64,000 nt of DNA, taken from NCBI GenBank assembly GCA_002307015.1, contig DBTK01000131.1, positions 723 through 64,722 of the forward strand, in the 5' to 3' direction. Source of the DNA: Spirochaetaceae bacterium UBA1318 (GTDB taxonomy: Bacteria > Spirochaetota > Spirochaetia > Treponematales > UBA1318). Both the position numbers and the translations under genes were made by a program. Positions 2,439 through 27,431 of this stretch are shown one piece after another (the first letter of the stretch is position 1; each line of letters opens with the position of its first letter). The notes beneath the pieces are model-generated. The model saw only the letters and a list, made by a program, of their open reading frames with translations, ran no database searches and had not been told where the DNA came from.

Positions 2439-3761
2439 ATGAGTTCAATCGCCGTCATTGGTACCGGCTATGTCGGCCTCGTGAGCGGGGCCTGTCTCGC
2501 GGATTTCGGGAATACCGTGGTCTGCATGGATACGGACGGGAAGAAGATAGAAGCCCTCAAGAAAGGGGAGATTCCCATCTACGAGCCGGGAATCGAGGAT
2601 ATCGTATCGAGAAATGTGGCGGCCGGGCGACTTTCGTTTTCGACCGACCCGGCTCTGGCCATCAAGGGAGCCGATGCCGTGTTCATCGCGGTGGGCACGC
2701 CCCCCGCGGATGACGGCAGCGCCGACCTCAAGTACGTCGAGTCGGCCGCGAGGAGCGTCGCGAGGAATCTCGAGGGCTACGTCGTCGTCGTGGACAAGAG
2801 CACGGTGCCGGTCGGCACCGCGCGCAAGGTGAAGTCCTGGATAGACGAGGAGCTCTCGCTGCGCGGCGTGAAGCGGGAGTTCGACGTGGTTTCGAACCCC
2901 GAGTTCCTCCGCGAGGGATCGGCCGTTCAGGACTTTACCCACCCGGACCGGGTGGTCATCGGCGCGGAGAGTGATCGGGCGAAGAAGCTGATGAAGGATG
3001 TCTACCGCGTCCTCTACCTCAACGAGACTCCCTATATCGAGACGAACCTCGAGACGGCGGAGATGATCAAGTACGCCTCGAACGCCTTCCTCTCGGTGAA
3101 GATCACCTTCATCAACGAGGTGGCGAACCTCTGCGAGAAGGCCGGGGCCAACGTCCAGGACGTGGCGAGGGCCATGGGAAAGGACGGGAGGATAGGCTCG
3201 AAGTTCCTGCATTCGGGGCCGGGCTACGGCGGTTCCTGCTTTCCGAAGGATACTCTCGCGATGGCGAGGACGGGGCGGGATTTCGGCGAGCCGATGTCCA
3301 TCGTGGAAACGACGATCGAAGCGAACGAGAGGCAGAAGGCCCGCATGGTCGTGAAGATCGAGAAGGGAATCGGCGGCCTCGAGGGCAAGACGGTCGCCAT
3401 CCTCGGCCTCGCCTTCAAGCCGAACACCGACGACATGAGGGAGGCTCCCGCCATCGCCATCTGCCTGGGCCTCGCCTCAGGAGGGGCCAAGATCCGGGCC
3501 TGCGACCCGGTCGCCGGGAAGGAAGCGGCCTGGCGTCTCGCCTCCATCAAGGATTCGATCTATTTCGCCAGGGACGAGTACGACGCCATCCAGGGCGCCG
3601 ACGCCGTCGTCATCGTGACCGAATGGAACCAGTACCGGAATCTCGACCTCGCAAAGGTGAAGACTCTTCTTTCCTCGCCCAACTTCTTCGACCTCAGGAA
3701 CATCTACAAGAGAAGCGATCTCGAGGCAATGGGCTTCCGGTATTTCGCCGTCGGACAGTGA
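2439..3761 (+). CDS. ugd: UDP-glucose 6-dehydrogenase
   Basis: 440 aa with N-terminal Rossmann motif IGTGYVGLVSGACLADFG. The catalytic Cys region GPGYGGSCFPKD and overall collinearity fit the UDP-glucose/GDP-mannose dehydrogenase family. Confidence 0.93.
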   Translation: MSSIAVIGTGYVGLVSGACLADFGNTVVCMDTDGKKIEALKKGEIPIYEPGIEDIVSRNVAAGRLSFSTDPALAIKGADAVFIAVGTPPADDGSADLKYVESAARSVARNLEGYVVVVDKSTVPVGTARKVKSWIDEELSLRGVKREFDVVSNPEFLREGSAVQDFTHPDRVVIGAESDRAKKLMKDVYRVLYLNETPYIETNLETAEMIKYASNAFLSVKITFINEVANLCEKAGANVQDVARAMGKDGRIGSKFLHSGPGYGGSCFPKDTLAMARTGRDFGEPMSIVETTIEANERQKARMVVKIEKGIGGLEGKTVAILGLAFKPNTDDMREAPAIAICLGLASGGAKIRACDPVAGKEAAWRLASIKDSIYFARDEYDAIQGADAVVIVTEWNQYRNLDLAKVKTLLSSPNFFDLRNIYKRSDLEAMGFRYFAVGQ

Positions 3762-3777
3762 GCCAGACGCGCCGGAC

Positions 3778-4422
3778 CTAGCTCTTTTCGGCCTGCCGGC
3801 GTCCGGCGGATTTGAGCTTCATTCGCGTCTTGATGAACCGGATGACGTAGAAGGGTATCCTGAGCGGCGAGGCGACGAGCTTCTGCACGCGGACGAACCA
3901 GTCGACCCGGGCCGGATAGTCGGCGATGGGGATGTTCCAGGTCTTGCCGTAGAGGTTCCGCATGAGGCCGATGGGATCGGCGGGAACCCGGAACTTCGCA
4001 CCGAGGAAGTCGACGTCCTCGAGGGAGTCGAGGAAACGTGGAGGGACGGTGGTTCTCTCGTCGAGCTGCCAGAGCCTGCCCTTGAAAAGGTGGCGTACCT
4101 TCCTCGCCGGAAACAGGTCGATATCGACTCCGTCCCGTATCACCTTGTAGATATACCCGTCTTTCCGGTTGTAGATCCCGTCGCCGATGAACTCGAACCC
4201 CTTCGCCTCGAAGCTGGGTTTGAGGGCGAGAAACCGGTCGACGTCGGAGAAATAAAAGCCGACGTCGATATCGTTATCGTGCGGTATGAAGTCCCTTTCC
4301 CTGACGGCACCCAGAAGCGTACCCCAGTGCAGGAACATGGGAATGCCGGCGCCTTCCAGAATATCCCGGGTGTCGACAAGATTCCTGAGTCCGATGGTTT
4401 TATCGAAAAATGATTGTTTCAT
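3778..4422 (-). CDS. LicD-family phosphotransferase (phospho-alcohol transferase to glycan)
   Basis: LicD signature LHWGTLLGAVRERDFIPHDNDIDVGF. I place the start at ATG 4422 (MKQSFF), preceded by AAGGA. The track's upstream extension to 4518 has no support. Confidence 0.75.
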   Translation of the reverse strand: MKQSFFDKTIGLRNLVDTRDILEGAGIPMFLHWGTLLGAVRERDFIPHDNDIDVGFYFSDVDRFLALKPSFEAKGFEFIGDGIYNRKDGYIYKVIRDGVDIDLFPARKVRHLFKGRLWQLDERTTVPPRFLDSLEDVDFLGAKFRVPADPIGLMRNLYGKTWNIPIADYPARVDWFVRVQKLVASPLRIPFYVIRFIKTRMKLKSAGRRQAEKS

Positions 4423-4558
4423 AATAATCCTTCTTGATTTTATCATGTGTATATGAGGAATACAACATGGGTTGGTGAGAAAAGCGTTAAATGAATATTT
4501 TTCCCTCTTGCGGGCCATGTCCTAACTTGCTAACATAGGCACGCACACGAGGAAGAAT

Positions 4559-5584
4559 ATGGACAGAATGATCATCATGGACCGCAACGAGAACAATTAC
4601 GGTCCTTCGCCGAAATGCCACGACGTCCTTGAACACATGGACATGGAGTATTTCTCCACATATTCACGGGATTATCCCCGACGCATCAAGTCGAGGATAG
4701 CGGAACAGTACGGCATCGCGCCCGAGCAGGTGGCGATCGGGTACGGCGCCGAGGATCTGCTGAAGCAGATCATTTACTGGGCCGCGGGAAAGGGCGCCGA
4801 TATCGCCGTTCCGAATATGTCGTGGTGGTATTACAAGCACATCGTCAAGGAAATCGACGGCAATCTCGTCGAATACCACATGACTGAAGGCGAGGAGAGC
4901 TGGGCTTTCGACGATGACGAGATCTTCCGGATTCTCGCCGCGAAGCCCCGGGTTTTCATCCTCGCGTCCCCCAACAATCCGACGGGCAACTACCTCGAAC
5001 CGGACCGGATTCGCCGGTACCTCGCGGCCAAGGCGCCCGAGACGGTGATGGTCCTCGACGAGGCCTACTGGGGCTTCGGCGCCCCGCCCTTTCCCGAACG
5101 GGAAATCGCGTGCTGGCCCGGGTTGATCGTGCTGCGCACGATGTCCAAGTACTACGCACTCGCCGGCCTCCGGATCGGCTTCGCCTTTCTGGGATCCGGG
5201 CTCGACGAGTACGTGGTGCACAACAGCAAGTACCTCGGGTTCAACCGCATTTCCGAGGAGATGCTGTTCGCCTCCCTCGATCATGAATCGGACCTCTACT
5301 ACCGCGAACGGGCCGCGATGATCATCGAGGACGGAAAGATGCTGTTCCAGGAACTCCGCGCCATGGGGTTCAAGCCCTTCCGGACCTGCGCCAACTTCAT
5401 TCTCGCCCGCCTGCCCGCTGCCGACTTCAACCTGCTCAAGGAGCGGGTGCTCACGAAGGGCATGGTGATAAAGTTTTTCAGCGAACCCATTTTCGAAAAC
5501 TGCGTCCGAATCTCCATCGGAACCCGCGACCAGAATTACTTGCTGGTGGAGATCATGAAAGACATTCTCGCCAACCGCGGTTGA
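4559..5584 (+). CDS. Class I/II PLP-dependent enzyme, HisC/CobD-like (aminotransferase or phospho-amino-acid decarboxylase)
   Basis: Motifs NENNYGPSP, ASPNNPTG and the PLP-lysine region RTMSKYYALAGLRIGF. GAGGAAG lies 5 nt upstream of the ATG. Confidence 0.75.
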   Translation: MDRMIIMDRNENNYGPSPKCHDVLEHMDMEYFSTYSRDYPRRIKSRIAEQYGIAPEQVAIGYGAEDLLKQIIYWAAGKGADIAVPNMSWWYYKHIVKEIDGNLVEYHMTEGEESWAFDDDEIFRILAAKPRVFILASPNNPTGNYLEPDRIRRYLAAKAPETVMVLDEAYWGFGAPPFPEREIACWPGLIVLRTMSKYYALAGLRIGFAFLGSGLDEYVVHNSKYLGFNRISEEMLFASLDHESDLYYRERAAMIIEDGKMLFQELRAMGFKPFRTCANFILARLPAADFNLLKERVLTKGMVIKFFSEPIFENCVRISIGTRDQNYLLVEIMKDILANRG

Positions 5585-5585
5585 G

Positions 5586-6302
5586 ATGCAGGCCGTTCTC
5601 CTTGCCGCCGGCATGGCCACGAGGCTCAGGCCGCTGACCGACCTGAGCCCGAAATGCCTCCTCGACGTGGGCGGAAAGTCCATCCTCCAGCGCGCGGTCG
5701 AGAACCTCGTCGCCGTCGGGGTGGACGAGGTCGTCATCGTCACGGGCTATCGTCCCGGCATGATACGGGCCCACATGGCCGAGAGGTTTCCCTCGCTGCG
5801 TGTCCGCTGGATCAACAACGACCGCTATGCCGAGACGAACAACGCCTACTCCCTCATGCTCGCCGAACCGGAGGCGCCGGGGGAATTCCTCCTTCTGGAC
5901 AGCGACATCCTCTTCCCCGCCGAACTGATCCGATCCCTCCTCGCCTGTCCCGATCGGCCCTGCATCGCCCTCCACCGGCACGAGTGCGGCGAGGAGGAGA
6001 TGAAGATCGTGTGCGGCGAGTCGGGCTGGGTGACGGATGTGGCAAAGACCATCGATCCGCGCAAGGCTGCGGGGGAGTCGATCGGATTCGAGCTTTTCGA
6101 CCGGAGTTCCCGGGATCGCCTTTTCGAGACGCTGCGGCGCCGAATAGTGGACGAGAAGCGAGAGAATGAATATTATGAAGCCTCGTTCAAGGAAATGGTG
6201 GATCACGGGTTCGGCTTCCGCACCGTGGACATCTCCTCCTGGCCGGCGACCGAAGTCGATACGATCGAGGACCTGGAACGGGCACGATCCCTGTTTCGCT
6301 GA
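5586..6302 (+). CDS. LicC-type nucleotidyl(cytidylyl)transferase
   Basis: LLAAGMATRLRPLT NTP-binding loop. NDRYAETNNAYSL closely resembles pneumococcal LicC NDKYADYNNFYSL. C-terminal EVDTIEDLERA. The start lies 2 nt after the previous stop. Confidence 0.8.
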   Translation: MQAVLLAAGMATRLRPLTDLSPKCLLDVGGKSILQRAVENLVAVGVDEVVIVTGYRPGMIRAHMAERFPSLRVRWINNDRYAETNNAYSLMLAEPEAPGEFLLLDSDILFPAELIRSLLACPDRPCIALHRHECGEEEMKIVCGESGWVTDVAKTIDPRKAAGESIGFELFDRSSRDRLFETLRRRIVDEKRENEYYEASFKEMVDHGFGFRTVDISSWPATEVDTIEDLERARSLFR

Positions 6303-6379
6303 CCCAACGGGTCGTGGATTTGTGACAGCGGCGTCGACGAGCGAAAAAAGCCTTTTCTGAATTCGACGAGGTAACGCTG

Positions 6380-8185
6380 ATGCAAGCAATTATCCTGGCC
6401 GCGGGAATGGGAAAGAGGCTCGGGAAGTATACCCGGGACGGGACCAAGTGCATGGTCAAGGTGAACGGGAAGTCCCTGATCGAGCACTCCCTCGAGGCCC
6501 TGATCGCCGTCGGGATCAAGCGGGTCGTGATGGTCGTCGGCTATCGCGCCGAGACCCTCCGCACCTTCCTCGAGGGGAGGTATCCCGAACTCGAGCTTTG
6601 CTACATCGAAAATCCCATCTACGACAAGACGAACAACATCTACTCCCTCTGGCTCGCGCGGCAGGAGCTCGCGGCGGAGGATTCCCTGCTGCTCGAGAGC
6701 GACCTGATCTTCCACCCCTCGATCATCAGGAAGCTGGTCGACGATGTCGAGCCGAACCTCGCGGTCGTGTCGAAATTCGAGTCCTGGATGGACGGCACCG
6801 TCACGATGGTCGACGAGAAGCGGAACATCGTGAGCGTGATCGACAAGGCCGACTTCAAGTGGAAGCGGGTGGAGGACTACTACAAGACCGTCAACATCTA
6901 CAAGTTTTCGAAGGAATTCTCGAAGACCTTCTACCTTCCCTTCCTCGACGCCTACATGGCCGCCTTCGGCCAGAACGAGTACTACGAGCAGGTCCTCAAG
7001 GTGCTCGCCTTCCTTTCCGACGTGAGGCTCAAGGCCCTGCCGGTGAGCGCGAGGCGATGGTACGAGATCGACGACCCGAACGACCTCGAGGTGGCCGAGA
7101 CCATCTTTTCGGAGGGGGACACGAAGTACGCCCTGATGGCGAAGCGCTACGGCGGGTACTGGCGCTTTCCCGGTATGCTGGACTACTGCTATCTCGTGAA
7201 CCCCTACTTCCCGCCCAAGCGCATGGTCAAGGAGATGCTTTCGAGCTTCCGCGAGCTCATGTCCCAGTATCCCTCGGCCGCACGGATCCAGAGCTCGCTT
7301 GCGGGAAAGGTGTTCGGTATCGAACCCGAGCGCATCGTCGTCGGAAACGGGGCGGCCGAGCTCATCGACGTGGCCTCGCGCCTCCTTCCGGGGCGGATGG
7401 CGATCACGTCGCCCTCGTTCAACGAGTATCCCGCGCGGTTCGGCAAGGAAAGGACGATCGTCGTGCCGACGGCGAATGGCAACCTTTCCTATGGCACCGC
7501 CGAGCTGATCGCGGCCATGGAAGGCGCCGACATCCTCGTCCTCGTGAACCCGGACAACCCGAGCGGCCATTTCCTCGGGAAGGACGAGGTCAAGGGGTTG
7601 GTCGAGACCCTTCTCTCCAAGGGGAAGCGGGTCATCTTCGACGAGTCCTTCATCGATTTCGCGGAACGTGAAAAACGCTACACCCTTTTGGACGACGACT
7701 ACCTCGCTTCCCACCCCGGGCTCATCGTCATCAAGAGCATCTCCAAGAGCTACGGGGTTCCGGGATTCAGGCTCGGCGTCCTCGCCACGGGGGACCTCGA
7801 GCTCGCCGCCGCGATCAGGAAGGCGCCCGCCGTCTGGAACATCAACTCGTTCGCCGAGTTCTTCCTGCAGATCGTCGACAAGTACAAGCGGTGGTACCTC
7901 GCCTCCTGCGACGAGATCGCCGAGGAGCGCGCCAGGTTCGCGGGGGCTCTCGAGGCCACCGGGATGATGAGCGTCTATCCCTCCCAGGCTAACTTCCTGC
8001 TCTGCCGCCTCAAGGCGGGGCTTTCCTCCCGCGCGCTTGCGGATTTTCTTCTCGAAGACTGCCGGATATTCATCAAGGATTTAGGAGACAAACCGGGGTT
8101 TCCCGAGGGCCAGTTCATCCGGCTCGCCGTTCGTGCGACCGGGGAAAACGACCGCTTCGTGGAAGCCCTGAAAAAATACCAATGA
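6380..8185 (+). CDS. Bifunctional fusion: N-terminal LicC-type nucleotidyltransferase plus C-terminal HisC/CobD-type PLP enzyme
   Basis: Single 601-aa frame. The N-terminal part has ILAAGMGKRLG, NPIYDKTNNIYSL and RWYEIDDPNDL. The C-terminal part has VNPDNPSG and SISKSYGVPGFRLGVL. Confidence 0.8.
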   Translation: MQAIILAAGMGKRLGKYTRDGTKCMVKVNGKSLIEHSLEALIAVGIKRVVMVVGYRAETLRTFLEGRYPELELCYIENPIYDKTNNIYSLWLARQELAAEDSLLLESDLIFHPSIIRKLVDDVEPNLAVVSKFESWMDGTVTMVDEKRNIVSVIDKADFKWKRVEDYYKTVNIYKFSKEFSKTFYLPFLDAYMAAFGQNEYYEQVLKVLAFLSDVRLKALPVSARRWYEIDDPNDLEVAETIFSEGDTKYALMAKRYGGYWRFPGMLDYCYLVNPYFPPKRMVKEMLSSFRELMSQYPSAARIQSSLAGKVFGIEPERIVVGNGAAELIDVASRLLPGRMAITSPSFNEYPARFGKERTIVVPTANGNLSYGTAELIAAMEGADILVLVNPDNPSGHFLGKDEVKGLVETLLSKGKRVIFDESFIDFAEREKRYTLLDDDYLASHPGLIVIKSISKSYGVPGFRLGVLATGDLELAAAIRKAPAVWNINSFAEFFLQIVDKYKRWYLASCDEIAEERARFAGALEATGMMSVYPSQANFLLCRLKAGLSSRALADFLLEDCRIFIKDLGDKPGFPEGQFIRLAVRATGENDRFVEALKKYQ

Positions 8186-9987
8186 CCATACCATTCATCG
8201 ATCCCTTTATCAGGGCCGTACGGCTCCTGGCCAAAAAAGAAAAGCGGCAGCTCGGTCTCCTCATCGCCTCGATGGTGGTGTGCGCCCTCGTGGACCTCGC
8301 GGGCATCAGCTCGATCGTGCCCTTCATGAGCGTGATCGGGAATCCGGCCATCGTCCACACGAACAAGTACCTCGCGGCCGCGTACGGGATGCTCGGGTTC
8401 TCCTCCGACCGGGCCTTCCTCATCGCCCTCGGCGCGGGCTCGATCTGCATGATCCTGTTCAGCTCGGCCCTTTCCGCCCTGACCTTCTACGCCCAGCAGC
8501 GGTTCGCGAACGGAAGGCGCTACACCCTTTCCAACCGGCTGCTCTCCACCTACCTTTCCCAGCCCTACGCCTTCTTCCTCGACCGGAACAGCGCGGAGCT
8601 GTCGAAAAACGTGCTCACGGAAACCACCCGGGTCTTCTCCGGGATCGTCAATTCGGGCATCGACTTCATCGCGCGCGGGGTCTCGATCATCTTCATCATC
8701 GGACTCTTCGTCGCGATCGACCCCTTTCTGGCCTTCTTCGTCAGCGTGGCCCTCGGCGGCTCCTACGCCCTGATCTTCTTCCTGTCGAGGAAGAAGCTTT
8801 CGGGAATTTCCAGGCGATGGGTCCTGCTCAACAAGATCAGGTTCCAGGCGGTGGGAGAGGCCCTCGGCGGGGTGAAGGAGATCAAGCTCCTCGGCGTCGA
8901 GGACAATTTCCTCCGAGCGTTCGCGAAACCCTCCCGGGAGTTCTCGAGGCTCGAAGCGAGCGAGGAGGTCATCAGCACCCTGCCGAAGTACTTTCTCGAG
9001 GCCCTGGCCTTCGGCGGGATCATGATCATCGTCCTCTACCTGCTCCTGTCCTACCACGACCTGAGCTCGGTCCTTCCCCGCATGACCCTGTTCGCCTTCG
9101 CCGGGTACAAGATGCTGCCGAACCTGCAGCTCTCGTTCAGGGCCCTGGCGAAGATGAAAAGCAATCGGTCTTCCCTCGACCTTATCGAAAGCCATCTCGC
9201 CCTTTCCTCGACGATGGTTCCCGCCGGTTCGTCGACGGCCGAGAGGCTCGAGCCCGCGAGGGAAATCCGGGTCTCGAACCTGGAATTCCTCTACGAGAAC
9301 ACCGATAAGCCGGCCCTCGTCATCGACGATTTGACGATTCCGGCCAAGATGAGCATCGGCATCGCCGGATCGACCGGGGCGGGGAAGACCACCTTCGTGG
9401 ACCTGCTCATCGGCCTTCTTTCGGCCCAGAAGGGAGGCTTTTTCATCGACGACGTGCCGGTGGAGGGCGAGAACGTCCGGAAATGGCAGAACTCGATCGG
9501 CTATATCCAGCAGAGCATCTACCTCTGCGACGACTCGGTCGCCGCGAACGTCGCCTTCGGAAGCCGCAAGGACACGATCGACATGGACGCGGTGGTGAAG
9601 GCTGGCAAGGCCGCGAGGATCCACGATTTCGTCATGGAGCTTCCCGAAGGCTACCAGACGATCATCGGGGAAAGGGGCGTCCGGCTCTCGGGCGGACAGC
9701 GCCAGAGGATCGGGATCGCGCGGGCTCTCTACCGGGATCCGCCCGTCCTCATCATGGATGAGGCGACGAGCGCCCTCGACAACGTGACCGAAGAGGCGGT
9801 GATGGAAGCCATCACCAATTACTCCCATACGAAGACCATTTTCATGATAGCCCACCGCCTCACTACCCTTCGCGATTGCGACCTGATCCTGTTCGTGAAT
9901 AAGGGACGCATCGAGGCGAAGGGGACCTACGCGGAGCTGCTCGAAACAAGCGAGGGCTTTCGCAAGATGGCGGGAAAGACGAGCTGA
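8182..9987 (+). CDS. Fused TMD-NBD ABC exporter (MsbA/PglK-like half-transporter)
   Basis: Hydrophobic N-terminal half, Walker A GSTGAGKTT, signature LSGGQRQRIGIARAL and Walker B VLIMDEATSALD. The start overlaps the previous stop (ATGA). Confidence 0.9.
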   Translation: MTIPFIDPFIRAVRLLAKKEKRQLGLLIASMVVCALVDLAGISSIVPFMSVIGNPAIVHTNKYLAAAYGMLGFSSDRAFLIALGAGSICMILFSSALSALTFYAQQRFANGRRYTLSNRLLSTYLSQPYAFFLDRNSAELSKNVLTETTRVFSGIVNSGIDFIARGVSIIFIIGLFVAIDPFLAFFVSVALGGSYALIFFLSRKKLSGISRRWVLLNKIRFQAVGEALGGVKEIKLLGVEDNFLRAFAKPSREFSRLEASEEVISTLPKYFLEALAFGGIMIIVLYLLLSYHDLSSVLPRMTLFAFAGYKMLPNLQLSFRALAKMKSNRSSLDLIESHLALSSTMVPAGSSTAERLEPAREIRVSNLEFLYENTDKPALVIDDLTIPAKMSIGIAGSTGAGKTTFVDLLIGLLSAQKGGFFIDDVPVEGENVRKWQNSIGYIQQSIYLCDDSVAANVAFGSRKDTIDMDAVVKAGKAARIHDFVMELPEGYQTIIGERGVRLSGGQRQRIGIARALYRDPPVLIMDEATSALDNVTEEAVMEAITNYSHTKTIFMIAHRLTTLRDCDLILFVNKGRIEAKGTYAELLETSEGFRKMAGKTS

Positions 9988-10001
9988 AGGGGCGGGGCAT
10001 C

Positions 10002-11003
10002 ATGCGGGCTTTCATCAAATCCCTCAGGCGGCTCGTGATCGGCAAGGCCGCCGCGCTCTGGTACCGGGCCGGGAGCGTCTTCCTGCCGGCGAGGCTCGAG
10101 TTGCTCCGCTACGACGTTCCCGTCCGGCTTCGGGTTCCGACCTACGACGGATCCGACCAGGCCGTGCATCCCGACATCCTGAGGACCGACGGACCGGGAA
10201 GGCCCTTCGTTCTCGCCTTCACCCCCTATCCGTTCACGAACGATCGGTACGAGAATCCCTCGGTCGTGGTCTCGACGGACGGACTCAGGTTCAGGGAGGA
10301 AAGGCGGGGGCTCAATCCCCTCGCGCCCGCGCCGGACAGGGACCACAACGACGATCCCGACCTGAGCCTGATCGACGGCACGTATCACCTTTTCTACCTG
10401 GAAACCCTGAGGCCCGAGCGCCAGAACCTCGTGCTCCTCGAGAGCCGGGATCGGCTGGACTGGACCAGGGCGGCGGAATGTAACTGGGAGCTTCAGGGCG
10501 AAAATCCCGATCCCATGATCGTGTCCCCTGCCCTGGCCGAGCTGGACGGGGAGTTCTTCCTCTATTACGTGAATACGACCGAGAGGCCCTATCGCGTCGA
10601 GTTCCTGAAAAGCGCGAGGCCCGATTCCTGGGACAGGAAGACGGCGAGCCTTCCCGTCTTCGACCGTTTCCCCTTCGTCCCCTGGCACGTCGACATCGTG
10701 AAGGGGAAGGGCTTTCATTACCTGATTCTGGACGAAACGGAGAAGATCGGGGAGGGCAGGCGGACCTACGACCTGAGGCTGGCCCGGAGCGCCGACCTCG
10801 TGCACTGGACGGTTTCGGACCGGAAGATCTTTGCCGAAAGGCCCTTCGGCTCGAGGCTCGTCTACCGCAGCACCGCCTGGTGCGACGGCGGCGACATCTT
10901 CGTGTATTTTTCCTACAAGACGAAACAGATGTGGAGAATCGGCCTGGTGCGGAAGCGCCTGGGCGACTTCTTCCCCGACGATTCGAACATGGAGCAACGA
11001 TGA
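10002..11003 (+). CDS. Hypothetical protein, possibly beta-propeller glycoside-hydrolase/phosphorylase-like
   Basis: 333-aa ORF with coding-like composition. Repeated segments rich in aromatic residues and Asp (AVHPDIL..TPYPF..ENPSVVVSTDG, DGTYHLFYLE, DGEFFLYYVN, GGDIFVYFSY) suggest propeller blades. No family could be named with certainty. Confidence 0.35.
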   Translation: MRAFIKSLRRLVIGKAAALWYRAGSVFLPARLELLRYDVPVRLRVPTYDGSDQAVHPDILRTDGPGRPFVLAFTPYPFTNDRYENPSVVVSTDGLRFREERRGLNPLAPAPDRDHNDDPDLSLIDGTYHLFYLETLRPERQNLVLLESRDRLDWTRAAECNWELQGENPDPMIVSPALAELDGEFFLYYVNTTERPYRVEFLKSARPDSWDRKTASLPVFDRFPFVPWHVDIVKGKGFHYLILDETEKIGEGRRTYDLRLARSADLVHWTVSDRKIFAERPFGSRLVYRSTAWCDGGDIFVYFSYKTKQMWRIGLVRKRLGDFFPDDSNMEQR

Positions 11004-12616: not shown

Positions 12617-14098
12617 TTGAACCAGATCGTCGACAGTTCCCTGATCGAACGAAAATACGGTCCCTACCTAGACGGGTCGGGACGGCTGAAGCCCGACGCA
12701 CCGTCGGGGATCGTCGATTCCCTGGCGGCCGATATCTTCGTGAAGCCGGCCCTCGGAATGCTCCGGCACGCTAGTCGATCCTTCGATTCGGACGCGATCG
12801 GCGCCTGGATGGCCCTGGTCGACGACCAGCTTCCTTCGCTCAGGCTTCGTGAGCCGGTTCGCCGTTTCTGCCGGTCCCGGCGGAGGGAGGCCTTCCTCAC
12901 CGCCTGCGTCAAGCGGGACGTCGAGGGACTCAAGGCCGTCCTCGGGAGGCGGGACTTCCCGCGATCGGCGAAAAGGGCTTCGGTCGAATCGCTCAGGCGT
13001 TTCAAGAAGATAGCCCTCGTCTACCTCGCGCGGTGGAAGGCCTCGCCGCGTTCCGGGTCCGAGCGCGATTCCCTGTTCATCATCCGCCGCCTTCCCGTCG
13101 GCGGCATCGAGCGGGCCCTCGTCAACCTCGTGAACGCGATAGTCTCCCTCGACAGATCGGTGGACCTCCTGGTCCTGGGCGGCATCGACCCCGTGCTGGG
13201 AGCCGAGATCGACCGGCGGGTCGATCTCGTGGACCTCGGCACCGCGCTGAAGCGTTCCTATACGGTGGCGGTAAATTATTCGCAGTGGCATTTTCCCGAG
13301 ATCCTGACGAGGGGAGTCAGGGCGGCGAGAAAGATCCAGTGGGTCCACAGCGACCTCCTCCAGATCTTCAACCGCTTTCCCCGGAACCTCTACGCCCGGG
13401 AGTACCGGAGGATCGACCGCTTTGTCTGCGTGTCCGAGGCCGCCCGCAGGGGCTTCGTCCAGCTTTATCCCTTCGCCGAAGGGAAGACATCGGTAATCTA
13501 CAGTTTCTACGACATGGAAGCCGTGCGGCTCCTTGCCTCCGAAAAAACGGGGATCGTCCTCGAGCGTGACCTGCCCGCGGTGGTGACCGTCGCGAGGCTC
13601 GCCGAGGCCAAGGGCCTCGATCGGGCCGTCCGCGTTCACCGGAGGCTCGCCGACCGGGGCGTGGATTTCCGCTGGTATGTCGTGGGCGACGGACCGATGC
13701 GGGCCGAGCTCGAGGCCCTCGTGAAGAAGCTCGGCCTCGAGGACCGCTTCATCCTCCTCGGCCTCGACCACAATCCCTTTCCGATCATGATCCAAGCCGA
13801 CCTGTTCGTTCTGCCTTCCTACCACGAGGGCTACGGCCTCTCGGCGCTCGAGGCGAAGACGGTCGGGCTTCCGCTCGTCGTCAGCGATTTCAGCTCGGCC
13901 TCCGAGATCGTCACCGACGGCTACGACGGCCTCGTCGCCCCGAACAACGAGCGGGGAATCGCCGAGGCCATGGAGAGATTGATCCTCGATCCCGGGCTGA
14001 GAAGCCGATTCAGGAAGAACCTCGAGGGTTTCCGTTACGATAACGCCGCGATACTGAAGGCAGTCCGGCGAGAGCTTTTTTCCGAGGAGACAACGTGA
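12617..14098 (+). CDS. GT4-family glycosyltransferase (start uncertain; about 150-aa N-terminal extension if the TTG at 12617 is used)
   Basis: C-terminal GT-B motif FVLPSYHEGYGLSALEAKTVGLPLVVSD. The GT4 core begins near SLFIIRRLPVGGIERALVNL. Alternative ATG starts lie at MLRHAS and MALVDD. Confidence 0.8.
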   Translation: MNQIVDSSLIERKYGPYLDGSGRLKPDAPSGIVDSLAADIFVKPALGMLRHASRSFDSDAIGAWMALVDDQLPSLRLREPVRRFCRSRRREAFLTACVKRDVEGLKAVLGRRDFPRSAKRASVESLRRFKKIALVYLARWKASPRSGSERDSLFIIRRLPVGGIERALVNLVNAIVSLDRSVDLLVLGGIDPVLGAEIDRRVDLVDLGTALKRSYTVAVNYSQWHFPEILTRGVRAARKIQWVHSDLLQIFNRFPRNLYAREYRRIDRFVCVSEAARRGFVQLYPFAEGKTSVIYSFYDMEAVRLLASEKTGIVLERDLPAVVTVARLAEAKGLDRAVRVHRRLADRGVDFRWYVVGDGPMRAELEALVKKLGLEDRFILLGLDHNPFPIMIQADLFVLPSYHEGYGLSALEAKTVGLPLVVSDFSSASEIVTDGYDGLVAPNNERGIAEAMERLILDPGLRSRFRKNLEGFRYDNAAILKAVRRELFSEETT

Positions 14099-15153
14099 AG
14101 ATTACGGCCCTTTACTATCCGGACGACATCACCCTGATGTTCACCCTTTCGCCGATACTGAAAAGCCGGTACGCGGGGATGTTCGATTTCACCCCCGATC
14201 CCGAGGCCGCGCTGAGGCTGAACAACCGGACCATCGTCCTTTTCCGTTTCGTGAAGCATTCCGCGGCCGTGGGCGGCAAGGCCTACCTCGACCGGCTTCG
14301 CGGCCGCTACGACAAAATCGTCTACTTCGACGACTTCGCCGATCCCCGGGACATCGTTTCCGACCTCATCGGCCTCGTGGACGTGTACTACAAGAAGCAG
14401 CTGCTGGCCGACCGGGGGCTCTACCGCAAGGGGGCCTACGGCACGAGGCTGTTCACCGACTACTACCACGAGCGCTACGGGGTGGAGGACGACGACGGAG
14501 CCATCGCGGCCCCGCTTTCGGCTGCCGACGTCGCGAAATTGAGGCTTTCCTGGAACCTCGGCCTCGGCTCCTATCCCAAGAACCGGATCCGGAAGGGGAT
14601 CAGCGTCAGGCTCGGGTCGAGGGGCATCGTCCGGCCGCTCAAATGGGTGTTCGCCGATCCGGCCTCCTACCGGAGCGGAAAGAAGACCATTTTCAAGGCG
14701 ACCGCCCGATTCCGGGCCGGCTTCGACCGGAAGACGATCGTCTTCCACCGGGAGCTTTTCCTGAAGGCGGTCGAGGGCAGGCCCGACCTTTTCCTCACCG
14801 GCCACCTCTCCCTCGAGGAGTACAACAGGGAGATGAGGGACTCCGTCGCCGCCCTGAGCCCCTTCGGCTGGGGCGAGATCTGCTTCAGGGATTTCGAGGC
14901 CATCATCAACCGGACGGTGCTCCTCAAGCCCTCCATGGACCATATCGAGACCTGGCCGAACGTCTACAAGCCGGGAAAGACCTACATCAGCCTGGATTGG
15001 GACGCGAAGGACACGGTGGAGGCGACCGAGGCCATCTTGCACGACGAGGTTCGGCGCAGGGAGATCACCGACAACGCCTGGGACGTCTATGCCGACGGGC
15101 TCAGGAACGCCGAAAAGCGGATCGAAGGCTTCCTCGCGGAAATCACGGTTTGA
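14095..15153 (+). CDS. Putative glycosyltransferase with CgeB/Glyco_trans_1_2-like C-terminal domain (paralog 1)
   Basis: 352 aa. LSPFGWGEICFRDFEAIINRTVLLKP and the following region fit the R-x-FE-A...G pattern of Glyco_trans_1_2. It is collinear with 25610-26680. The start overlaps the previous stop. Confidence 0.5.
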   Translation: MKITALYYPDDITLMFTLSPILKSRYAGMFDFTPDPEAALRLNNRTIVLFRFVKHSAAVGGKAYLDRLRGRYDKIVYFDDFADPRDIVSDLIGLVDVYYKKQLLADRGLYRKGAYGTRLFTDYYHERYGVEDDDGAIAAPLSAADVAKLRLSWNLGLGSYPKNRIRKGISVRLGSRGIVRPLKWVFADPASYRSGKKTIFKATARFRAGFDRKTIVFHRELFLKAVEGRPDLFLTGHLSLEEYNREMRDSVAALSPFGWGEICFRDFEAIINRTVLLKPSMDHIETWPNVYKPGKTYISLDWDAKDTVEATEAILHDEVRRREITDNAWDVYADGLRNAEKRIEGFLAEITV

Positions 15154-15702: not shown

Positions 15703-16860
15703 ATGAACATCGTCGGCATTTTTTTCAACAACGAACTGCGCACCGGCGGCCACGTCCGCTACCTCGAACTCATGGAAGGCCTCGCCTCGGGGGGACACCG
15801 GGTGGTCGTCCTTCTCAATTCCCTGCTCGCCTACGAGCCGAGGGTCTTCGAGGCCCTGAGGTTTCCCGTCCGCTACAAACGGAAGGGCTTCCCTCCCGCC
15901 TCGGCCGTTTTCGCCGCGGAGGCGGGAAGGAGGGCGAAGGAGTTGGGGGCGAGGATGGGCGGAAAGGTCGATGCGGTCCTCGTGTTCGGCGAGACCCACG
16001 TCGCCGCGGGCGAGAAACTCAAACGGGCCTTCGGCTGTCCCCTTATCTATGGCCACCGCTCGAACACGGCGAGGGAGTACCTCACCTACCTCGACGAGAA
16101 GGGACATTCGGCCATCGAGCGGGCACGGTTTCGCCTCGGCCTCCTCTGGTCGGTCCGCCAGGAGCGGAACATCGCCAGGGCGGCCGACATCGTCGTGTTC
16201 CAGAGCTCCTTCGACATGAACGATTTCCTCTCCCGGGTTCCCGTTGCGCGGGGCAGGACCTTCGTGGTCCGCGGGGACATCCTGGGTCCCCGGTTCAAGC
16301 CCGAGTGGGCCGGCTCAAACCGGAGCGAACGCCTCGAGAAGATCGCTTTCATGGGCACCCAAGGGCCGCGGAAGGGGGTGGATTACCTCATCGGGGCGAT
16401 TGCCCTGCTCAAGGAGAGGGGGTTCGGGCAGCTGCGCTTCGAGATCTGCGGGCCAGGGCAGAGGACCGAGGAGCTCGAGGCGAGGCTTGCGGCGGACGGA
16501 ACGGCCGGGATGGCGACAATCCACGGCAGGGTTCCCGACGCCTTCCCCGTGGTTTCGGCCTGCGACCTCCTCGTCGTCCCCTCCCTTTTCGACAGCTACC
16601 CGAACTCCGTGCTCGAGGCCCTGCACGCCGGCACCCCGGTCATCGGCAGTCGGGTCGGCGGCATACCGGACATGCTTTCCCATGACGAGCTCCTCTTCCC
16701 GCCGATGGACGCGAAGGCCATCGCCGACATCATCGAGGGCTGCGTCCGCGATCCCGGTCATTACCGCAAACTCAAGTCGCTCTGCGCCGGACGAGCCGAT
16801 TATTTCAGGTTCGACTGGGCCGCCGAATGGGCGAAGCTCGTTCCCCTGTCAAAGAACTGA
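15703..16860 (+). CDS. GT4-family glycosyltransferase
   Basis: Start MNIVGIFFNNELRTGGHVRY. C-terminal motif VVPSLFDSYPNSVLEALHAGTPVIGSRVGGIPDM. Confidence 0.8.
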   Translation: MNIVGIFFNNELRTGGHVRYLELMEGLASGGHRVVVLLNSLLAYEPRVFEALRFPVRYKRKGFPPASAVFAAEAGRRAKELGARMGGKVDAVLVFGETHVAAGEKLKRAFGCPLIYGHRSNTAREYLTYLDEKGHSAIERARFRLGLLWSVRQERNIARAADIVVFQSSFDMNDFLSRVPVARGRTFVVRGDILGPRFKPEWAGSNRSERLEKIAFMGTQGPRKGVDYLIGAIALLKERGFGQLRFEICGPGQRTEELEARLAADGTAGMATIHGRVPDAFPVVSACDLLVVPSLFDSYPNSVLEALHAGTPVIGSRVGGIPDMLSHDELLFPPMDAKAIADIIEGCVRDPGHYRKLKSLCAGRADYFRFDWAAEWAKLVPLSKN

Positions 16861-18042
16861 TTGATTGAGAATGCTCGAAGGAAGACTCGTTATGAACTCA
16901 AGATAATTTCCGGGGTGGATCGTTTTGAAGCCGGCTTCGGGATACGTATTCGTCCAGCTTGCGGGCGGTTTGATGTTCTTTTCCTTCAGCTTGAACTCGA
17001 ATGCATCAAGATGTCCGTCCGAGTCCTCCACATAATCGGCTTCGGCCCCAGTGTGTGTGCGCCAGAACCATGAGCCGCCGTAGAATCCCCGATAGGCATT
17101 GAACTTCATGCGCTCGGAGACCAGAAAGTTTTCCCAAAGCAAGTCTCGATCGCCCCTGAACTGCCATTCCTTGAAATCTTCTATGAGCGCATTTCGGACT
17201 CCGTTATCGTAGAAATAAACCTTGTCTTTCTTGGTGACTTCCTTTCGAAGGTTCCGGCTGAATCCGCCCAATCGAAATACGACAAAGGCCTTTTCGAGTA
17301 AATCGATGTAGGAAATGACTGTATCGGCGCTCATGCCGGTCTGCCGTCCCAATTCCTGGTATGATACCTCGGAACCGATCTGATACGCCAAAAGGCGCAG
17401 AAGGTCGCGAAGTTTCCTTGAGTTATGGATTCCTCCCAATTCAAGAACGTCCTTGTACAGGTAGGCCGATGACAACTAGATAAGGTGATGGATTCTATCC
17501 TCTCTCGAAGGCATGGAAAGAAGAGCCGGATAAGAGCCCAGGGTGAGCGTTTCTTCTCGATGCCCATCCACTTCGAATGAGTTTTCGAAAGCCGCGTATT
17601 CAGAAAAAGAGATCGGGTAGAGCGTGAAGGTCCATGTTCTTCCGGTCAGGGACTCCTTGGTTCTTCCCGCAAGATCGAGGCTTGATGATCCGGTAATAAA
17701 CAAGGTTCCGGGAAAATCGGAATCGTGGAGAAGCTTCAACGAAAGCCCGATATTCAGAATTTTCTGGGCCTCATCGATCAGTATAAGATCATAACCCGAA
17801 ACAATTCCCCGTATTCGCTGCAGATCCCGGGATTCCCACACCGCCTGGACTCGAGGATCCTCCCCATTTATCATGAGCGATCGTAGCCCTGTTTCGGAAA
17901 TGACTTTTTTCGCCAGTGTCGTTTTTCCAACCTGTCGAGGACCGTAGAGCATGACGATTCGGCGATCGTTCCGGAGCTTTTCAAGGATTACTGGTTCCAA
18001 AGAACGCGGAATATTCATATCATGATTATGGCGTGATTTCAT
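16849..18042 (-). pseudogene. AAA-family ATPase (AAA_14 + DUF4143 architecture) interrupted by a single in-frame TAG
   Basis: The two adjacent track ORFs (17476-18042 and 16849-17475) are in the same frame, separated only by TAG at 17476-17478 (...EDRIHHLI*LSSAYLYKDVLELGG). Walker A LYGPRQVGKTTLA. The likely true start is MNIPRS at 18018. Joined length is about 388 aa, typical for the family. G+C is visibly lower than the flanks. Confidence 0.75.
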
Positions 18043-21359: not shown

Positions 21360-21569
21360 GACGAGATCCAACTCAAATCGGTGAGTTTAGGGTGATAACT
21401 GACGGGAAACGAGCGTGTGCGTCCAAGACTGGCTCCACATTATCCTGTGTCACAGAGAAGAGAAGCCTTTTTGGCTTCCGTGCACGGGATCGCTTGTCGA
21501 GTTGACAGCGATTAAAATCTCTGGCGGTCCATGACAAACGCAAGATACCGGACAACAATGGGGTAATAC

Positions 21570-22496
21570 ATGAAACTGTCGGTTTGCATTCCGGTATATA
21601 ACGGCGAAAAAACAATAGGCCCGCTTGTGGCTGAAGTGATTGACCTGTATAAATCATATGATCTTGAAATAGTTTTAGTGAATGACGGCAGTTCCGACAA
21701 TAGTGAGACTGTTTGCGAGTCGTTGGCTGAAAAATATCCGCAGGTTGTCGCGATCTCTTTAAGAAGAAATTATGGCGAACATAACGCGGTAATGTGTGCG
21801 TTGAAACACTGTTCGGGTGATTACGCCGCGATCATCGATGACGATTTTCAGAATCCTCCTCGGGAAATATTGAAATTGTTATCTGAAGCTAAAAAAGATT
21901 ATGATGTTGTCTATGCGAAATATCGTAAAAAGAGACATAGCTTTTTCAGAAATTTAGGTAGTTGGCTTAACGATGTTATTGCAACCTTTCTGCTTCGAAA
22001 GCCGAAGAGTCTTTATTTATGTTCTTTTAAGCTTATTAACCGTCCAGTGATTAATGAAGTCGTAAAATATACCGGTCCATTCCCCTATATTGATGGCCTT
22101 GTTTTGCGCGTAACAGCCAATATTGGTTCCGTTTATGTCGACCACCAAGCACGACAGGAGGGGGAATCAACCTACACAATAGGAAAGCTTGTTTCATTGT
22201 GGTTGAATATGTTTATTAATTTTTCCATTCGTCCCATGCGCATTATCAGCATTATCGGGCTACTCACATCGTTTATCAGTTTTGTTCTGGCGATTATCTT
22301 TTTAATCGATAAGGTCATTCATCCTGAAATCCCGGCTGGATGGGCTTCTTTGGCTCTTCTTGTCTTATTTATAGGGGGAATTCAAACATTATCCCTTGGG
22401 GTTATCGGGGAGTATGTTGGGAAAAATTATCTTGATAGAAACGGTACTCCGCAATGGGTTGTTAAATGGGTGAAAAAATATCAAAACGCACAATAA
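21570..22496 (+). CDS. GT2 polyprenyl-phosphate glycosyltransferase (GtrB/ArnC-like)
   Basis: LSVCIPVYNGEKTI, VLVNDGSSDNS and IIDDDFQNPP (DXD), plus two C-terminal TM helices. This is the typical GtrB/ArnC architecture. Confidence 0.85.
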   Translation: MKLSVCIPVYNGEKTIGPLVAEVIDLYKSYDLEIVLVNDGSSDNSETVCESLAEKYPQVVAISLRRNYGEHNAVMCALKHCSGDYAAIIDDDFQNPPREILKLLSEAKKDYDVVYAKYRKKRHSFFRNLGSWLNDVIATFLLRKPKSLYLCSFKLINRPVINEVVKYTGPFPYIDGLVLRVTANIGSVYVDHQARQEGESTYTIGKLVSLWLNMFINFSIRPMRIISIIGLLTSFISFVLAIIFLIDKVIHPEIPAGWASLALLVLFIGGIQTLSLGVIGEYVGKNYLDRNGTPQWVVKWVKKYQNAQ

Positions 22497-22885
22497 AGGA
22501 GCTATTCTCTTTTTATTGTATTGGAATTGTTAATACCGCGCTAACTTACGGCATTTACGCTGGTCTTGTGTATCTCGGTATTTATCACCAACTAGCGTTG
22601 ATCGCTGACTATGCGTTTGGCATTGTGTTTAGTTATTTTTTCAATAAACATATTACCTTTGGCATCGTTTCTCGTACGAATTTCTTCATGATGTTCCGGA
22701 TGGTCATTTCATATGTTCCCATTCTTTTCATAAATATGGCTCTTTTGTGGGTTCTTGTTGACAAAAACAAGGCCAACAAGTATGTAAGCCAAATCGTATC
22801 TTTAGTTGTATGCGCAATTCTGTCGTTCGTTGTACAGAAGTTATTTGTATTCAACATCCACAGCCGGGATAAACATGGCGTATAA
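22466..22885 (+). CDS. GtrA-family small membrane protein
   Basis: 139 aa with four hydrophobic helices. N-terminal FSFYCIGIVNTALTYGIY and FSYFFNKHITF fit GtrA-like proteins. It overlaps the GT2 gene by 31 nt. Confidence 0.75.
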   Translation: MGEKISKRTIKELFSFYCIGIVNTALTYGIYAGLVYLGIYHQLALIADYAFGIVFSYFFNKHITFGIVSRTNFFMMFRMVISYVPILFINMALLWVLVDKNKANKYVSQIVSLVVCAILSFVVQKLFVFNIHSRDKHGV

Positions 22886-23237: not shown

Positions 23238-23239
23238 AA

Positions 23240-24325: not shown

Positions 24326-24450
24326 CATCGAGGACCTACTGGTCACCAGGGATTCCGCCAAGCTTGGCCAAGTCGGCCCATCCGATGTACGTATGCATGA
24401 AGTCAAGTTTGTCAGCCGAGTAGCATAAATACGCTTCGGTGCCGATGGCG

Positions 24451-26696: not shown

Positions 26697-27431
26697 ATGA
26701 ACAACCGCCATACGATGCGAGACATCGTCGCCTCGCTTCCGCCCGAGAAGAGGGCCGCCGACGGATTTTGGACGCGCTTCGTCCTTCGCCCCATTTCCTT
26801 TCCCGCCTCGTGGCTTCTCCTGAGGCTCGGGCTTTCGGCCGACGCGGTCACCTACGTTTCGGCCCTGCTCTGCGTCGCCGGCTTTGTTTTCATCGCCGCG
26901 GGCGGAGCCCTCTTCACCTGGACCGGCATCGTCCTCTTTTTCATCTTCGGCATCCTCGACTGCGCCGACGGGAACATGGCCCGCGTGATCGGAAAGCCCA
27001 ATCCCTGGGGCGAGTGGGTCGACGCCTTCGGCGGCTACATCGCCTACGCGACCATTCTCCTTTCCCTCGGCATCGCCGCAGAGACCCTTTCCGGCTCCTC
27101 CATCCCCGGCGTCCAGGGCTACGTCCTTCCGTGGAAGGGCGGCGGCTGGATGCTCATCGGCGCCCTCGCCTCGTGCGCGAACCTCCTGATGCGCCTCCTC
27201 TACCAGAGCTTCAGGGCAACCCAGCCGGATCCGGGGAAGAAGGCCGTCGGGGGCGAGAAGAAGTTGAGCGAGACGATCGGGATCACCGGTCTCCTCGTTC
27301 CCCTTTTCGCCATCGGCTACGCCACGGGCTTTCTCGCCTGGGTGCTCGTCGCCTACACGGTCATCTACGGGGGCGGTTGCCTCCTCGTCGCCCTGAAGCT
27401 CGTCCGGAAGGTCGAGAAGTCGCTGAGATAG
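26697..27431 (+). CDS. CDP-alcohol phosphatidyltransferase-family membrane enzyme
   Basis: 244 aa, polytopic. The motif LDCADGNMARVIGKPNPWGEWVDAFGG fits D-x2-DG-x2-AR-x8-G-x3-D. The final Asp of the canonical motif is not obvious. Confidence 0.75.
   Translation: MNNRHTMRDIVASLPPEKRAADGFWTRFVLRPISFPASWLLLRLGLSADAVTYVSALLCVAGFVFIAAGGALFTWTGIVLFFIFGILDCADGNMARVIGKPNPWGEWVDAFGGYIAYATILLSLGIAAETLSGSSIPGVQGYVLPWKGGGWMLIGALASCANLLMRLLYQSFRATQPDPGKKAVGGEKKLSETIGITGLLVPLFAIGYATGFLAWVLVAYTVIYGGGCLLVALKLVRKVEKSLR

Follow-up and report, generated by a model that had tools for sequence, protein, structure and literature searches.

Zwitterionic phospho-amino-alcohol decorations such as phosphocholine, phosphoethanolamine and 2-aminoethylphosphonate (AEP) shape the encounters of surface glycans and lipids with host immunity, antimicrobial peptides and phages. 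Known bacterial routes to them use choline import, phosphoethanolamine from phosphatidylethanolamine, or phosphonate machinery. Here, we analyzed a 64,000-nucleotide stretch of contig DBTK01000131.1 from Spirochaetaceae bacterium UBA1318 (hereafter, the window), in which a gene for a LicD-family phosphotransferase adjoins genes for two LicC-like cytidylyltransferases and two pyridoxal 5′-phosphate (PLP) enzymes, one of each being fused (positions 3778 to 8185). An initial annotation had read these genes as one self-contained module. Judged by its relatives in other genomes, the region is instead the junction of two independent cassettes: cassette A, with LicD, a HisC-like PLP enzyme and a LicC-like cytidylyltransferase, and cassette B, a LicC/CobD-like fusion. 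If our explanation is true, the cassettes are self-sufficient routes from phosphoserine or dihydroxyacetone phosphate (DHAP) to CDP-activated head groups that need no choline uptake.

Several described systems resemble parts of this region. In the Lic1 pathway of Streptococcus pneumoniae and Haemophilus (LicA/LicB/LicC/LicD), a LicC-fold cytidylyltransferase makes a CDP head group and a LicD-family enzyme transfers it to a glycan precursor prior to export, as predicted here. However, no choline permease or kinase is annotated in the window, and PLP enzymes would supply the head group from central metabolites; further, the head-group residues of the two cytidylyltransferases are Asp/Glu and Glu/Glu, in contrast to Asp/Asp in LicC. 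The Tde1415 protein of Treponema denticola is a fusion of PntC with an AEP transaminase that makes CMP-AEP (PMC6697681), as the initial annotation had correctly stated. Like our fusion, it joins an N-terminal LicC-like cytidylyltransferase to a C-terminal PLP enzyme making the amine substrate, has LicD-like genes nearby and carries a Glu/Glu head-group pair. The analogy extends to this architecture and stops at the PLP domain, since Tde1415 has a class V (PF00266) AEP transaminase needing phosphoenolpyruvate mutase (Ppm) and phosphonopyruvate decarboxylase (Ppd), whereas the fusion here has a class I/II (PF00155) CobD-type domain and neither enzyme is present in the window.

Both predicted PLP reactions have a precedent in a single locus, the HS:2 capsule locus of Campylobacter jejuni, where Cj1436 makes ethanolamine phosphate by decarboxylation of phosphoserine and Cj1437 makes serinol phosphate by transamination of DHAP (PMC11800397). 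The initial annotation was right on both enzymes. A UDP-glucose dehydrogenase is found in that locus as well as in ours, and our comparison with this PLP pair is by published function. In C. jejuni, the products are ligated to glucuronate by an ATP-grasp amidoligase and dephosphorylated, whereas the cytidylyltransferases and phosphotransferases here imply a phosphodiester. Among solved structures, the fused PLP domain is closest to CobD (L-threonine-O-3-phosphate decarboxylase) and to the protein of PDB entry 6oux, with which it shares the PLP lysine and the predicted reaction class; in contrast to these, it is fused to a cytidylyltransferase, scores below the CobD cut-off and lies in a glycan locus, with no cobamide genes in the window. 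Lastly, the IPCT/DIPPS route to CDP-inositol in Bacteroidetes (PMC9246714) pairs an NTP_transf_3 cytidylyltransferase with a CDP-alcohol phosphatidyltransferase acting on a CDP-alcohol other than CDP-diacylglycerol, which is the same logic as in two of the operons described below (L085 and L086). It differs in that the alcohol phosphate here would come from an aminotransferase rather than an inositol-phosphate synthase, and in that the phosphotransferase of the window lacks the fourth motif Asp. Thus, CDP activation followed by LicD, TagF or CDP-alcohol transfer is well known and both PLP reactions are precedented, while the cassettes themselves appear uncharacterised. Neither cassette, and no bacterial route leading from phosphoserine to CDP-ethanolamine, was described in the papers reached by a literature search that largely did not cover subscription journals.

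Gene linkage of the two cassettes

All four open reading frames (ORFs) reported initially are present with identical limits in the ORF listing. The features of the region, with two further genes on which the argument draws, are as follows (related loci from other genomes carry L numbers):

3778..4422 (ORF to 4518), minus strand: LicD-family phosphotransferase of cassette A (PF04991, 6kaj match, homologue in L168)
4423..4558, no strand: intergenic region from which LicD and the HisC-like operon diverge, presumed promoter region
4559..5584, plus strand: HisC-like PLP enzyme of cassette A, predicted keto-phosphate aminotransferase (Aminotran_1_2; hisC below cut-off)
5586..6302, plus strand: LicC-like cytidylyltransferase of cassette A (NTP_transf_3, NTP_transferase, 1jyk)
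6380..7129, plus strand: N-terminal LicC/PntC-like cytidylyltransferase domain of the cassette B fusion (NTP_transf_3)
7130..8185, plus strand: C-terminal CobD-type PLP domain of the fusion, predicted O-phospho-amino-acid decarboxylase (TIGR01140, 6oux)
8182..9987, plus strand: PglK/MsbA-type ATP-binding cassette (ABC) exporter (ABC_membrane and ABC_tran; best NCBIfam match PglK, E 2.8e-101, below cut-off)
26697..27431, plus strand: CDP-alcohol phosphatidyltransferase family protein, 244 amino acids (PF01066, E 4.2e-8)

Gene models are public gene calls; longest-ORF calling chose antisense ORFs in this GC-rich DNA. Family placement was performed with Pfam and NCBIfam profiles at curated cut-offs and by alignment to PDB sequences, and it bore out the labels LicD, PLP enzyme, LicC-type cytidylyltransferase and LicC-PLP fusion (the whole fusion ORF spans 6380-8185 on the plus strand). 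The four genes are indeed adjacent, but the description "back to back" does not extend to their orientation, since LicD lies on the minus strand, divergent from the three plus-strand genes.

All four proteins have many conserved homologues, which indicates that the four-gene pattern is not due to chance. A single four-gene module was nevertheless rejected, because both units occur separately in other genomes. Locus L168 holds the LicD/HisC-like/LicC-like trio at 74%, 87% and 82% identity in the same divergent layout, without the fusion and not within a polysaccharide locus. The closest fusion homologues (L169 and L170; 68-78% identity) lack cassette A, and no HisC-like gene above 27% identity, nor any comparable LicC-like partner, was found near the fusion in the 80 fusion loci. 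Both cassettes are together in L084, which, like the window, also has a block of Glyco_trans_1_2, CDP-OH_P_transf and GT4 genes.

Cassette A was followed through 54 metagenome loci whose HisC-like gene product is at least 33% identical to that of the window. A LicC-like gene was present within 3 kb in 39 of them, and homologues of the LicC-like protein (40-82% identical) sit directly downstream of HisC-like genes elsewhere. Where at least 3 kb of downstream DNA was available (26 loci), a CDP-alcohol phosphotransferase was found in 24, most commonly CDP-OH_P_transf (15), followed by LicD (7) and TagF-like proteins (2). In contrast, none of 26 loci with ordinary HisC (26-32% identity, below the 33% limit) had a LicC-like gene or a CDP-alcohol phosphotransferase. 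Free-standing three-gene operons of HisC-like, CDP-OH_P_transf and cytidylyltransferase genes were found among unrelated genes in a spirochaete (L085) and in Melioribacteraceae (L086).

Two further observations were made on this cassette. An MprF flippase-like LPG_synthase_TM protein joins the HisC-like/CDP-OH_P_transf/cytidylyltransferase operon in 11 loci (among L087-L140; for example, L128 6909-7985), and its presence suggests an aminophospholipid product there. Also, the window from about 47800 to 53000 is syntenic with L167 (sigma-54 activator, WecG, RNA methyltransferase, S41 peptidase, ParA, FapA and Lgt). Beside WecG, L167 has an inserted pair of HisC-like and LicC-like genes (70% and 58% identity), so the cassette changes its position among related genomes.

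For cassette B, phosphotransferases were counted within 6 kb of the fusion in the 80 fusion loci. At least one was found in 53 (TagF-like in 29, LicD in 21 and CDP-OH_P_transf in 6, some loci having two types), and in most Treponema loci a TagF-like CDP-glycerol-type gene lies directly upstream of the fusion. The neighbours conserved across the 80 loci are glycan genes. No conserved kinase was found among the fusion's neighbours in these loci, which fits a substrate drawn straight from central metabolism. The gene directly 3′ of the fusion in 25 Bacteroidales loci (e.g. L042, L045, L047 and L066) encodes an octopine-type dehydrogenase (18 loci) or an OCD/mu-crystallin protein (7 loci), often with LicD next. 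These downstream genes fit a primary-amine product, and they suggest N-carboxyalkylated (opine-like) phosphoethanolamine head groups in those Bacteroidales loci. Overall, at least 590 species representatives carry a fusion homologue of 47-78% identity, among them many Treponema, Alistipes, Prevotella and Bacteroides from gut and rumen, and also Clostridia, delta-proteobacteria, Saccharibacteria and others. As a side observation, 23 loci (Treponema L011-L044) have, together with the TagF-like gene and upstream of the fusion, a gene for a protein of about 900 amino acids in which a YidC-like 60KD_IMP domain is joined to a sulfatase/alkaline-phosphatase domain.

In L040 (10001-16613), the CobD-type fusion stands beside a complete AEP set (Ppm-CTP_transf_like, Ppd and a class V PntC-AEP transaminase fusion). 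A true Tde1415-type protein (NTP_transf_3 plus Aminotran_5) is thus a separate gene there, and since both types stand side by side the two fusions differ. Such a locus may install both a phosphonate and a phosphate amino-alcohol.

Taken together, the linkage of both PLP/cytidylyltransferase units to CDP-alcohol phosphotransferases in other genomes supports the initial proposal that the locus would make its own choline-independent, CDP-activated amino-alcohol phosphate. The proposed attachment through LicD is tied to cassette A, on the strength of L168, and not demonstrably to the product of the fusion.

Enzyme families and predicted head groups

The stand-alone cytidylyltransferase matches NTP_transf_3 (E 1.3e-15) as well as NTP_transferase. 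Among solved structures, it comes closest to pneumococcal LicC (1jyk, E 1.9e-19, with residues 2-233 aligned) and next to Tde1415 (6pd1, E 5e-17). It carries the N-terminal LAAGxxxRL signature with closest similarity to LicC, and the correspondence of NDRYAETNNAYSL to pneumococcal NDKYADYNNFYSL, quoted in the initial annotation, is visible in the LicC alignment. Rice et al. (PMC6697681) link specificity to a pair of acidic head-group positions, occupied by Asp/Asp in LicC, which is choline-specific, and by Glu104/Glu196 in PntC, which is AEP-specific. By pairwise alignment, these positions hold Asp (LLDSD) and Glu (YYE) in the stand-alone enzyme, which does not match the Asp/Asp pair of LicC.

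The fusion consists of NTP_transf_3 over residues 3-132 and Aminotran_1_2 (PF00155, class I/II) over residues 304-596. Its cytidylyltransferase domain matches 6pd1 (E 5e-14) and 1jyk (E 7e-14) and is only 30% identical to the stand-alone enzyme. Its Glu106 (LLESD) aligns with Glu104 of T. denticola PntC, and Glu203 of its YYE aligns with the EYE motif, read here as Glu196 of PntC. Thus the domain has the Glu/Glu pair of PntC in contrast to the Asp/Asp of LicC. Since phosphoethanolamine is nearly isosteric with AEP, this pair weakly favors a small primary amine as the fusion's substrate. The Asp/Glu versus Glu/Glu difference suggests that the stand-alone enzyme acts on a somewhat different substrate.

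The fused PLP domain scores 180.3 bits against the CobD profile (TIGR01140, E 5e-53; cut-off 290.55) and 133 bits against hisC. Its best PDB matches are 6oux (E 2.7e-43), then 3ftb and S. enterica CobD (1lc5, E 3e-32). The PLP lysine in SISKSYGVPGFRLG is conserved, the lysine of SISKSYGVPG aligning with that of SLTKFYAIPG in CobD, and two of the three phosphate-binding Arg positions of CobD are kept. A neighbor-joining tree with 100 bootstrap replicates, using references transcribed from the PDB alignments, placed the fused domains as sisters to 6oux (100/100) within a clade that also holds 1lc5 and 3ftb (100/100). The source annotation calls the fusion cobyric acid decarboxylase-like.

The stand-alone PLP protein matches Aminotran_1_2 (E 4.8e-32), and its best NCBIfam match is hisC (TIGR01141) at 204.3 bits, under the equivalog cut-off of 276.55. 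With both PLP scores under their cut-offs, neither protein is an equivalog of HisC or CobD. In E. coli HisC, Tyr20 belongs to an N-terminal arm and Tyr110 to the imidazole pocket. The HisC-like protein lacks the arm, its match beginning at profile position 22, and its Trp89 aligns with Tyr110. This Trp lies within an SWWYY motif that is invariant in the subfamily and absent from ordinary HisC in the alignment. In the same tree, the subfamily is monophyletic (100/100) and lies on the HisC side on a separate long branch. The initial annotation had offered clustering of the PLP domains with HisC as a way to overturn its reading: the fused domain does not group with HisC, while the stand-alone enzyme falls on that side as a distinct clade. 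By its sequence, then, the stand-alone enzyme is HisC-derived and not an ordinary HisC. Source annotations call its relatives histidinol-phosphate aminotransferase, which is probably wrong, and such systematic misannotation could distort metabolic reconstructions of histidine biosynthesis.

LicD matches PF04991 with E 4.7e-13 (50.2 bits against a gathering cut-off of 22.6), the match being limited to positions 4-51 of 227, at the N-terminal end of the profile. The catalytic domain of FKRP (6kaj), and only that domain, matches residues 52-179 with E 1.1e-7. A DxD-type metal-binding motif is a defining feature of the LicD family, and an acidic motif of this type, GTLLGAVRERDFIPHDNDIDVG, follows the GTxLGxxR segment in the translation (HDNDIDVG). 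The start codon is probably at 4422, giving a protein of 214 amino acids, because a GAAGGA ribosome-binding site lies upstream, the Logan call has 214 amino acids and the L168 homologue aligns from there; the latter, 74% identical, has the same divergent position beside the HisC-like/LicC-like pair. At the divergent region a sigma-70-like match was found (4418-4446, plus strand), and in a promoter and terminator scan of 3600-10100 the match counts did not exceed those of shuffled controls. In L084, a 283-amino-acid ORF preceding the HisC-like gene was considered as a divergent LicD and rejected, as it gave a weak MptE-like match only.

Starting from the gene content, family placement and conserved linkage described above, we infer the substrates, CDP products, acceptor and pairing of transferases with cassettes as follows. 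In cassette A, the HisC-like enzyme would transaminate a keto-phosphate, with DHAP to serinol phosphate as the best guess, because HisC itself acts on a 2-keto, 1-phosphate compound and Cj1437 performs such chemistry on DHAP. The LicC-like enzyme would then use CTP to form a CDP-amino-alcohol (CDP-serinol), from which LicD would move the phospho-amino-alcohol to a lipid-linked glycan. In cassette B, the CobD-type domain would decarboxylate an O-phospho-amino acid, the best guess being O-phospho-L-serine to phosphoethanolamine, and the fused LicC/PntC-like domain would make CDP-ethanolamine. Transfer could be by LicD, by the CDP-OH_P_transf protein at 26.7 kb or by an unrecognised enzyme. The lipid-linked repeat unit would be decorated at the cytoplasmic face and then exported by the PglK-like ABC transporter. 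The gene for this transporter is translationally coupled to the fusion, with an overlap of 4 nucleotides between its start and the stop of the fusion, and its product is likely the flippase of the lipid-linked decorated glycan.

By analogy with these relatives, production of CDP-activated amino-alcohol phosphates is likely. Contrary to the initial statement that it cannot be read from the sequence, the head group can be narrowed somewhat. Ethanolamine has slightly better than even prospects as one head group, and serinol somewhat less than even ones; both assignments remain inference. We regard the two-cassette CDP-amino-alcohol explanation as a whole as probable. A wider interpretation is possible, and we put it forward with reserve. 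In it, cassette A would make an undescribed head group, CDP-serinol or another CDP-2-amino-alcohol, via a HisC-derived transaminase. This head group would be used with LicD on surface glycans (the window and L168), or with a CDP-alcohol phosphatidyltransferase and MprF-like flippase domain for a new aminophospholipid class in Bacteroidota, Ignavibacteriota and Spirochaetota (L085, L086 and the 11 LPG_synthase_TM loci). Cassette B would give hundreds of gut and environmental species a "Kennedy-like" bacterial route that makes CDP-ethanolamine de novo from phosphoserine.

Weighing the alternatives

A number of points weigh against the two-cassette explanation. Substrate assignment is by analogy throughout in both cassettes, and for serinol phosphate the basis is chemical similarity to the HisC reaction together with Cj1437. 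No report of CDP-serinol was found in the literature search, which had the same restricted coverage of subscription journals. Both the fused PLP domain and the stand-alone PLP protein score below the NCBIfam cut-offs, and one of the phosphate-binding Arg positions of CobD is Lys in the fusion. We take 6oux to be SMUL_1544, the serine-phosphate decarboxylase of norcobamide synthesis; its PDB title reads "threonine phosphate decarboxylase-like enzyme" only. Alongside the closest fusion homologues there is no recognisable phosphotransferase. The CDP-alcohol phosphatidyltransferase motif is DxxDGxxAR...GxxxDxxxD, and the 26697-27431 protein has DCADGNMAR-x8-GEWVDAFGG, with Gly for the fourth Asp. 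This variant is common to the homologues in polysaccharide loci (L084 and L061), and the operon-type homologues (L085 and L086) keep Asp. Finally, the gene absences on which we draw (ppm, licA and pduX) apply to the 64-kb window and not to the whole genome.

Among other explanations, the one that survives best is that the fused domain is a true threonine-phosphate decarboxylase, giving CDP-(R)-1-amino-2-propanol whose aminopropanol phosphate is then moved. CobD is the best NCBIfam match of the domain, and the match to S. enterica CobD is strong. Nevertheless, the CobD score of 180 lies well under the cut-off of 290, and in the tree its sister is 6oux (100/100), not CobD or 3ftb. Neither a threonine kinase nor any other conserved kinase was found near the fusion in the 80 loci, threonine phosphate is not a central metabolite and the window has no cob genes. 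We consider this product unlikely.

It is improbable, in our view, that the four genes form one linear pathway, in which the HisC-like enzyme would make O-phosphoserine from 3-phosphohydroxypyruvate to feed the fused decarboxylase, leaving CDP-ethanolamine as the single product and the second cytidylyltransferase redundant. The genes do adjoin, three of them on one strand with short gaps, and a HisC-type enzyme could plausibly take a keto acid bearing a phosphate ester. However, the HisC-like/LicC-like pair occurs without a CobD-like partner in L168, L167, L085, L086 and most of the 54 loci, and in none of the 80 fusion loci is the fusion accompanied by a HisC-like gene. Central metabolism already provides phosphoserine, and two cytidylyltransferases that are 30% identical and differ in their head-group residues argue for two substrates.

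Phosphonate tailoring, in which CMP-AEP would be made as by Tde1415 with phosphonopyruvate produced elsewhere in the genome, is very unlikely. On its side, the PntC domain of Tde1415 (6pd1) is among the matches of both cytidylyltransferases (E 5e-17 and 5e-14), the fusion carries the PntC Glu/Glu pair and decarboxylation of phosphonoalanine would, by our reasoning, yield AEP. Moreover, an ORF with the Ppm motif lies beside the fusion in three Treponema loci (L018, L031 and L040), and in L040 it is a confirmed Ppm. In a scan of the window and 166 loci, however, this motif was missing from 77 of the 80 fusion loci and from all HisC-like loci, its three true matches each lay next to a full, separate set of AEP genes, and the phosphonate set of L040 is already complete, making the CobD-type fusion there an extra, different unit. 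The PLP domains are of class I/II and not of the class V AEP transaminase type (PMC6697681). Within the window, the motif (EDKxxxxxNS) gave one chance match only, inside an SLBB export protein. Based on Pfam lists, the annotated genes of the window include no Ppm (PEP_mutase), no Ppd (TPP enzyme), no choline kinase and no LicB-type permease; two ORFs, 54709-55716 and 55713-57485, match no Pfam family. The absences listed in the initial annotation thus hold for annotated genes, and its phosphonate alternative finds no support in the window.

Amide decoration as in C. jejuni HS:2, where serinol phosphate or ethanolamine phosphate is ligated to glucuronate carboxyls and dephosphorylated so that no phosphodiester results, is equally remote. 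C. jejuni uses both PLP chemistries to this end (PMC11800397), and the UDP-glucose dehydrogenase gene (2439-3761) lies directly upstream of the region. However, the locus has no ATP-grasp amidoligase or HAD phosphatase, and an amide route would have no need of PLP enzymes coupled or fused to cytidylyltransferases and linked to CDP-alcohol phosphotransferases.

A classical phosphocholine pathway, with the LicC-like enzyme activating phosphocholine, LicD transferring it and the PLP enzymes as unrelated neighbors, is highly improbable. The nearest solved relative is indeed pneumococcal LicC, including the NDxYAxxNNxYSL motif and the Asp at the first head-group position, and LicD adjoins. Nevertheless, Glu occupies the second head-group position, where PntC also has Glu and LicC has Asp, neither a choline kinase nor a LicB-type permease is annotated in the window, and across phyla the LicC-like gene is almost always paired with a HisC-like gene.

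Hardly credible is a housekeeping role, with the stand-alone protein as HisC and the fusion as CobD plus a CobY-type cytidylyltransferase for cobamide loop assembly: the annotations read histidinol-phosphate aminotransferase and cobyric acid decarboxylase-like, and CobY belongs to the same NTP_transf_3 superfamily, but both PLP proteins fall under the equivalog cut-offs, the HisC-like protein lacks the N-terminal arm and has Trp for Tyr110, the fusion's N-terminal domain best matches LicC and PntC, the 64-kb window has no his or cob genes, and the neighbors in 134 related loci are glycan or lipid phosphotransferases.

The surrounding polysaccharide locus

The window is part of a 75.7-kb metagenome contig, and its closest relatives are metagenome-assembled genomes of Treponemataceae and Spirochaetaceae. 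The two cassettes are set in a large polysaccharide locus of the Wzz/Wza/Wzi type. Upstream are genes for a Wzz/GNVR protein, an SLBB export protein and the UDP-glucose dehydrogenase. Downstream, the four genes are followed by the PglK-like ABC exporter, Wzi, several GT4 glycosyltransferases and an acetyltransferase, and further along by a block of Glyco_trans_1_2, CDP-OH_P_transf, GT4, epimerase and Bac_transf genes. The CDP-OH_P_transf gene of this block (26697-27431; PF01066, 34.2 bits against a cut-off of 22) had been overlooked in the initial annotation.

Several minor observations were made on the neighboring genes. Two paralogous Glyco_trans_1_2-like proteins of about 355 amino acids each are encoded at 14095-15153 and 25610-26680. 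With the L084 protein encoded ahead of CDP-OH_P_transf, the latter shares 67% identity and the former 38%; the former matches no Pfam family. After the ABC exporter, 10002-11003 encodes a protein of 333 amino acids with faint matches to GH43/GH32 beta-propeller-like families only. In the Treponema locus L010, a homologue (42% identity) precedes LicD and the fusion by about 2 kb. An AAA_14/DUF4143 ATPase gene pair (16849-18042, minus strand) lies amid the glycosyltransferase genes on the opposite strand and has a third-position GC of 0.50-0.60, compared to about 0.8 in the flanking glycosyltransferase genes. Lastly, a low-GC island at about 21400-24400 (0.41-0.48 versus about 0.60) holds GT2, GtrA, FdtA and DegT-type aminotransferase genes and looks like a horizontally acquired amino-dideoxy-sugar cassette.

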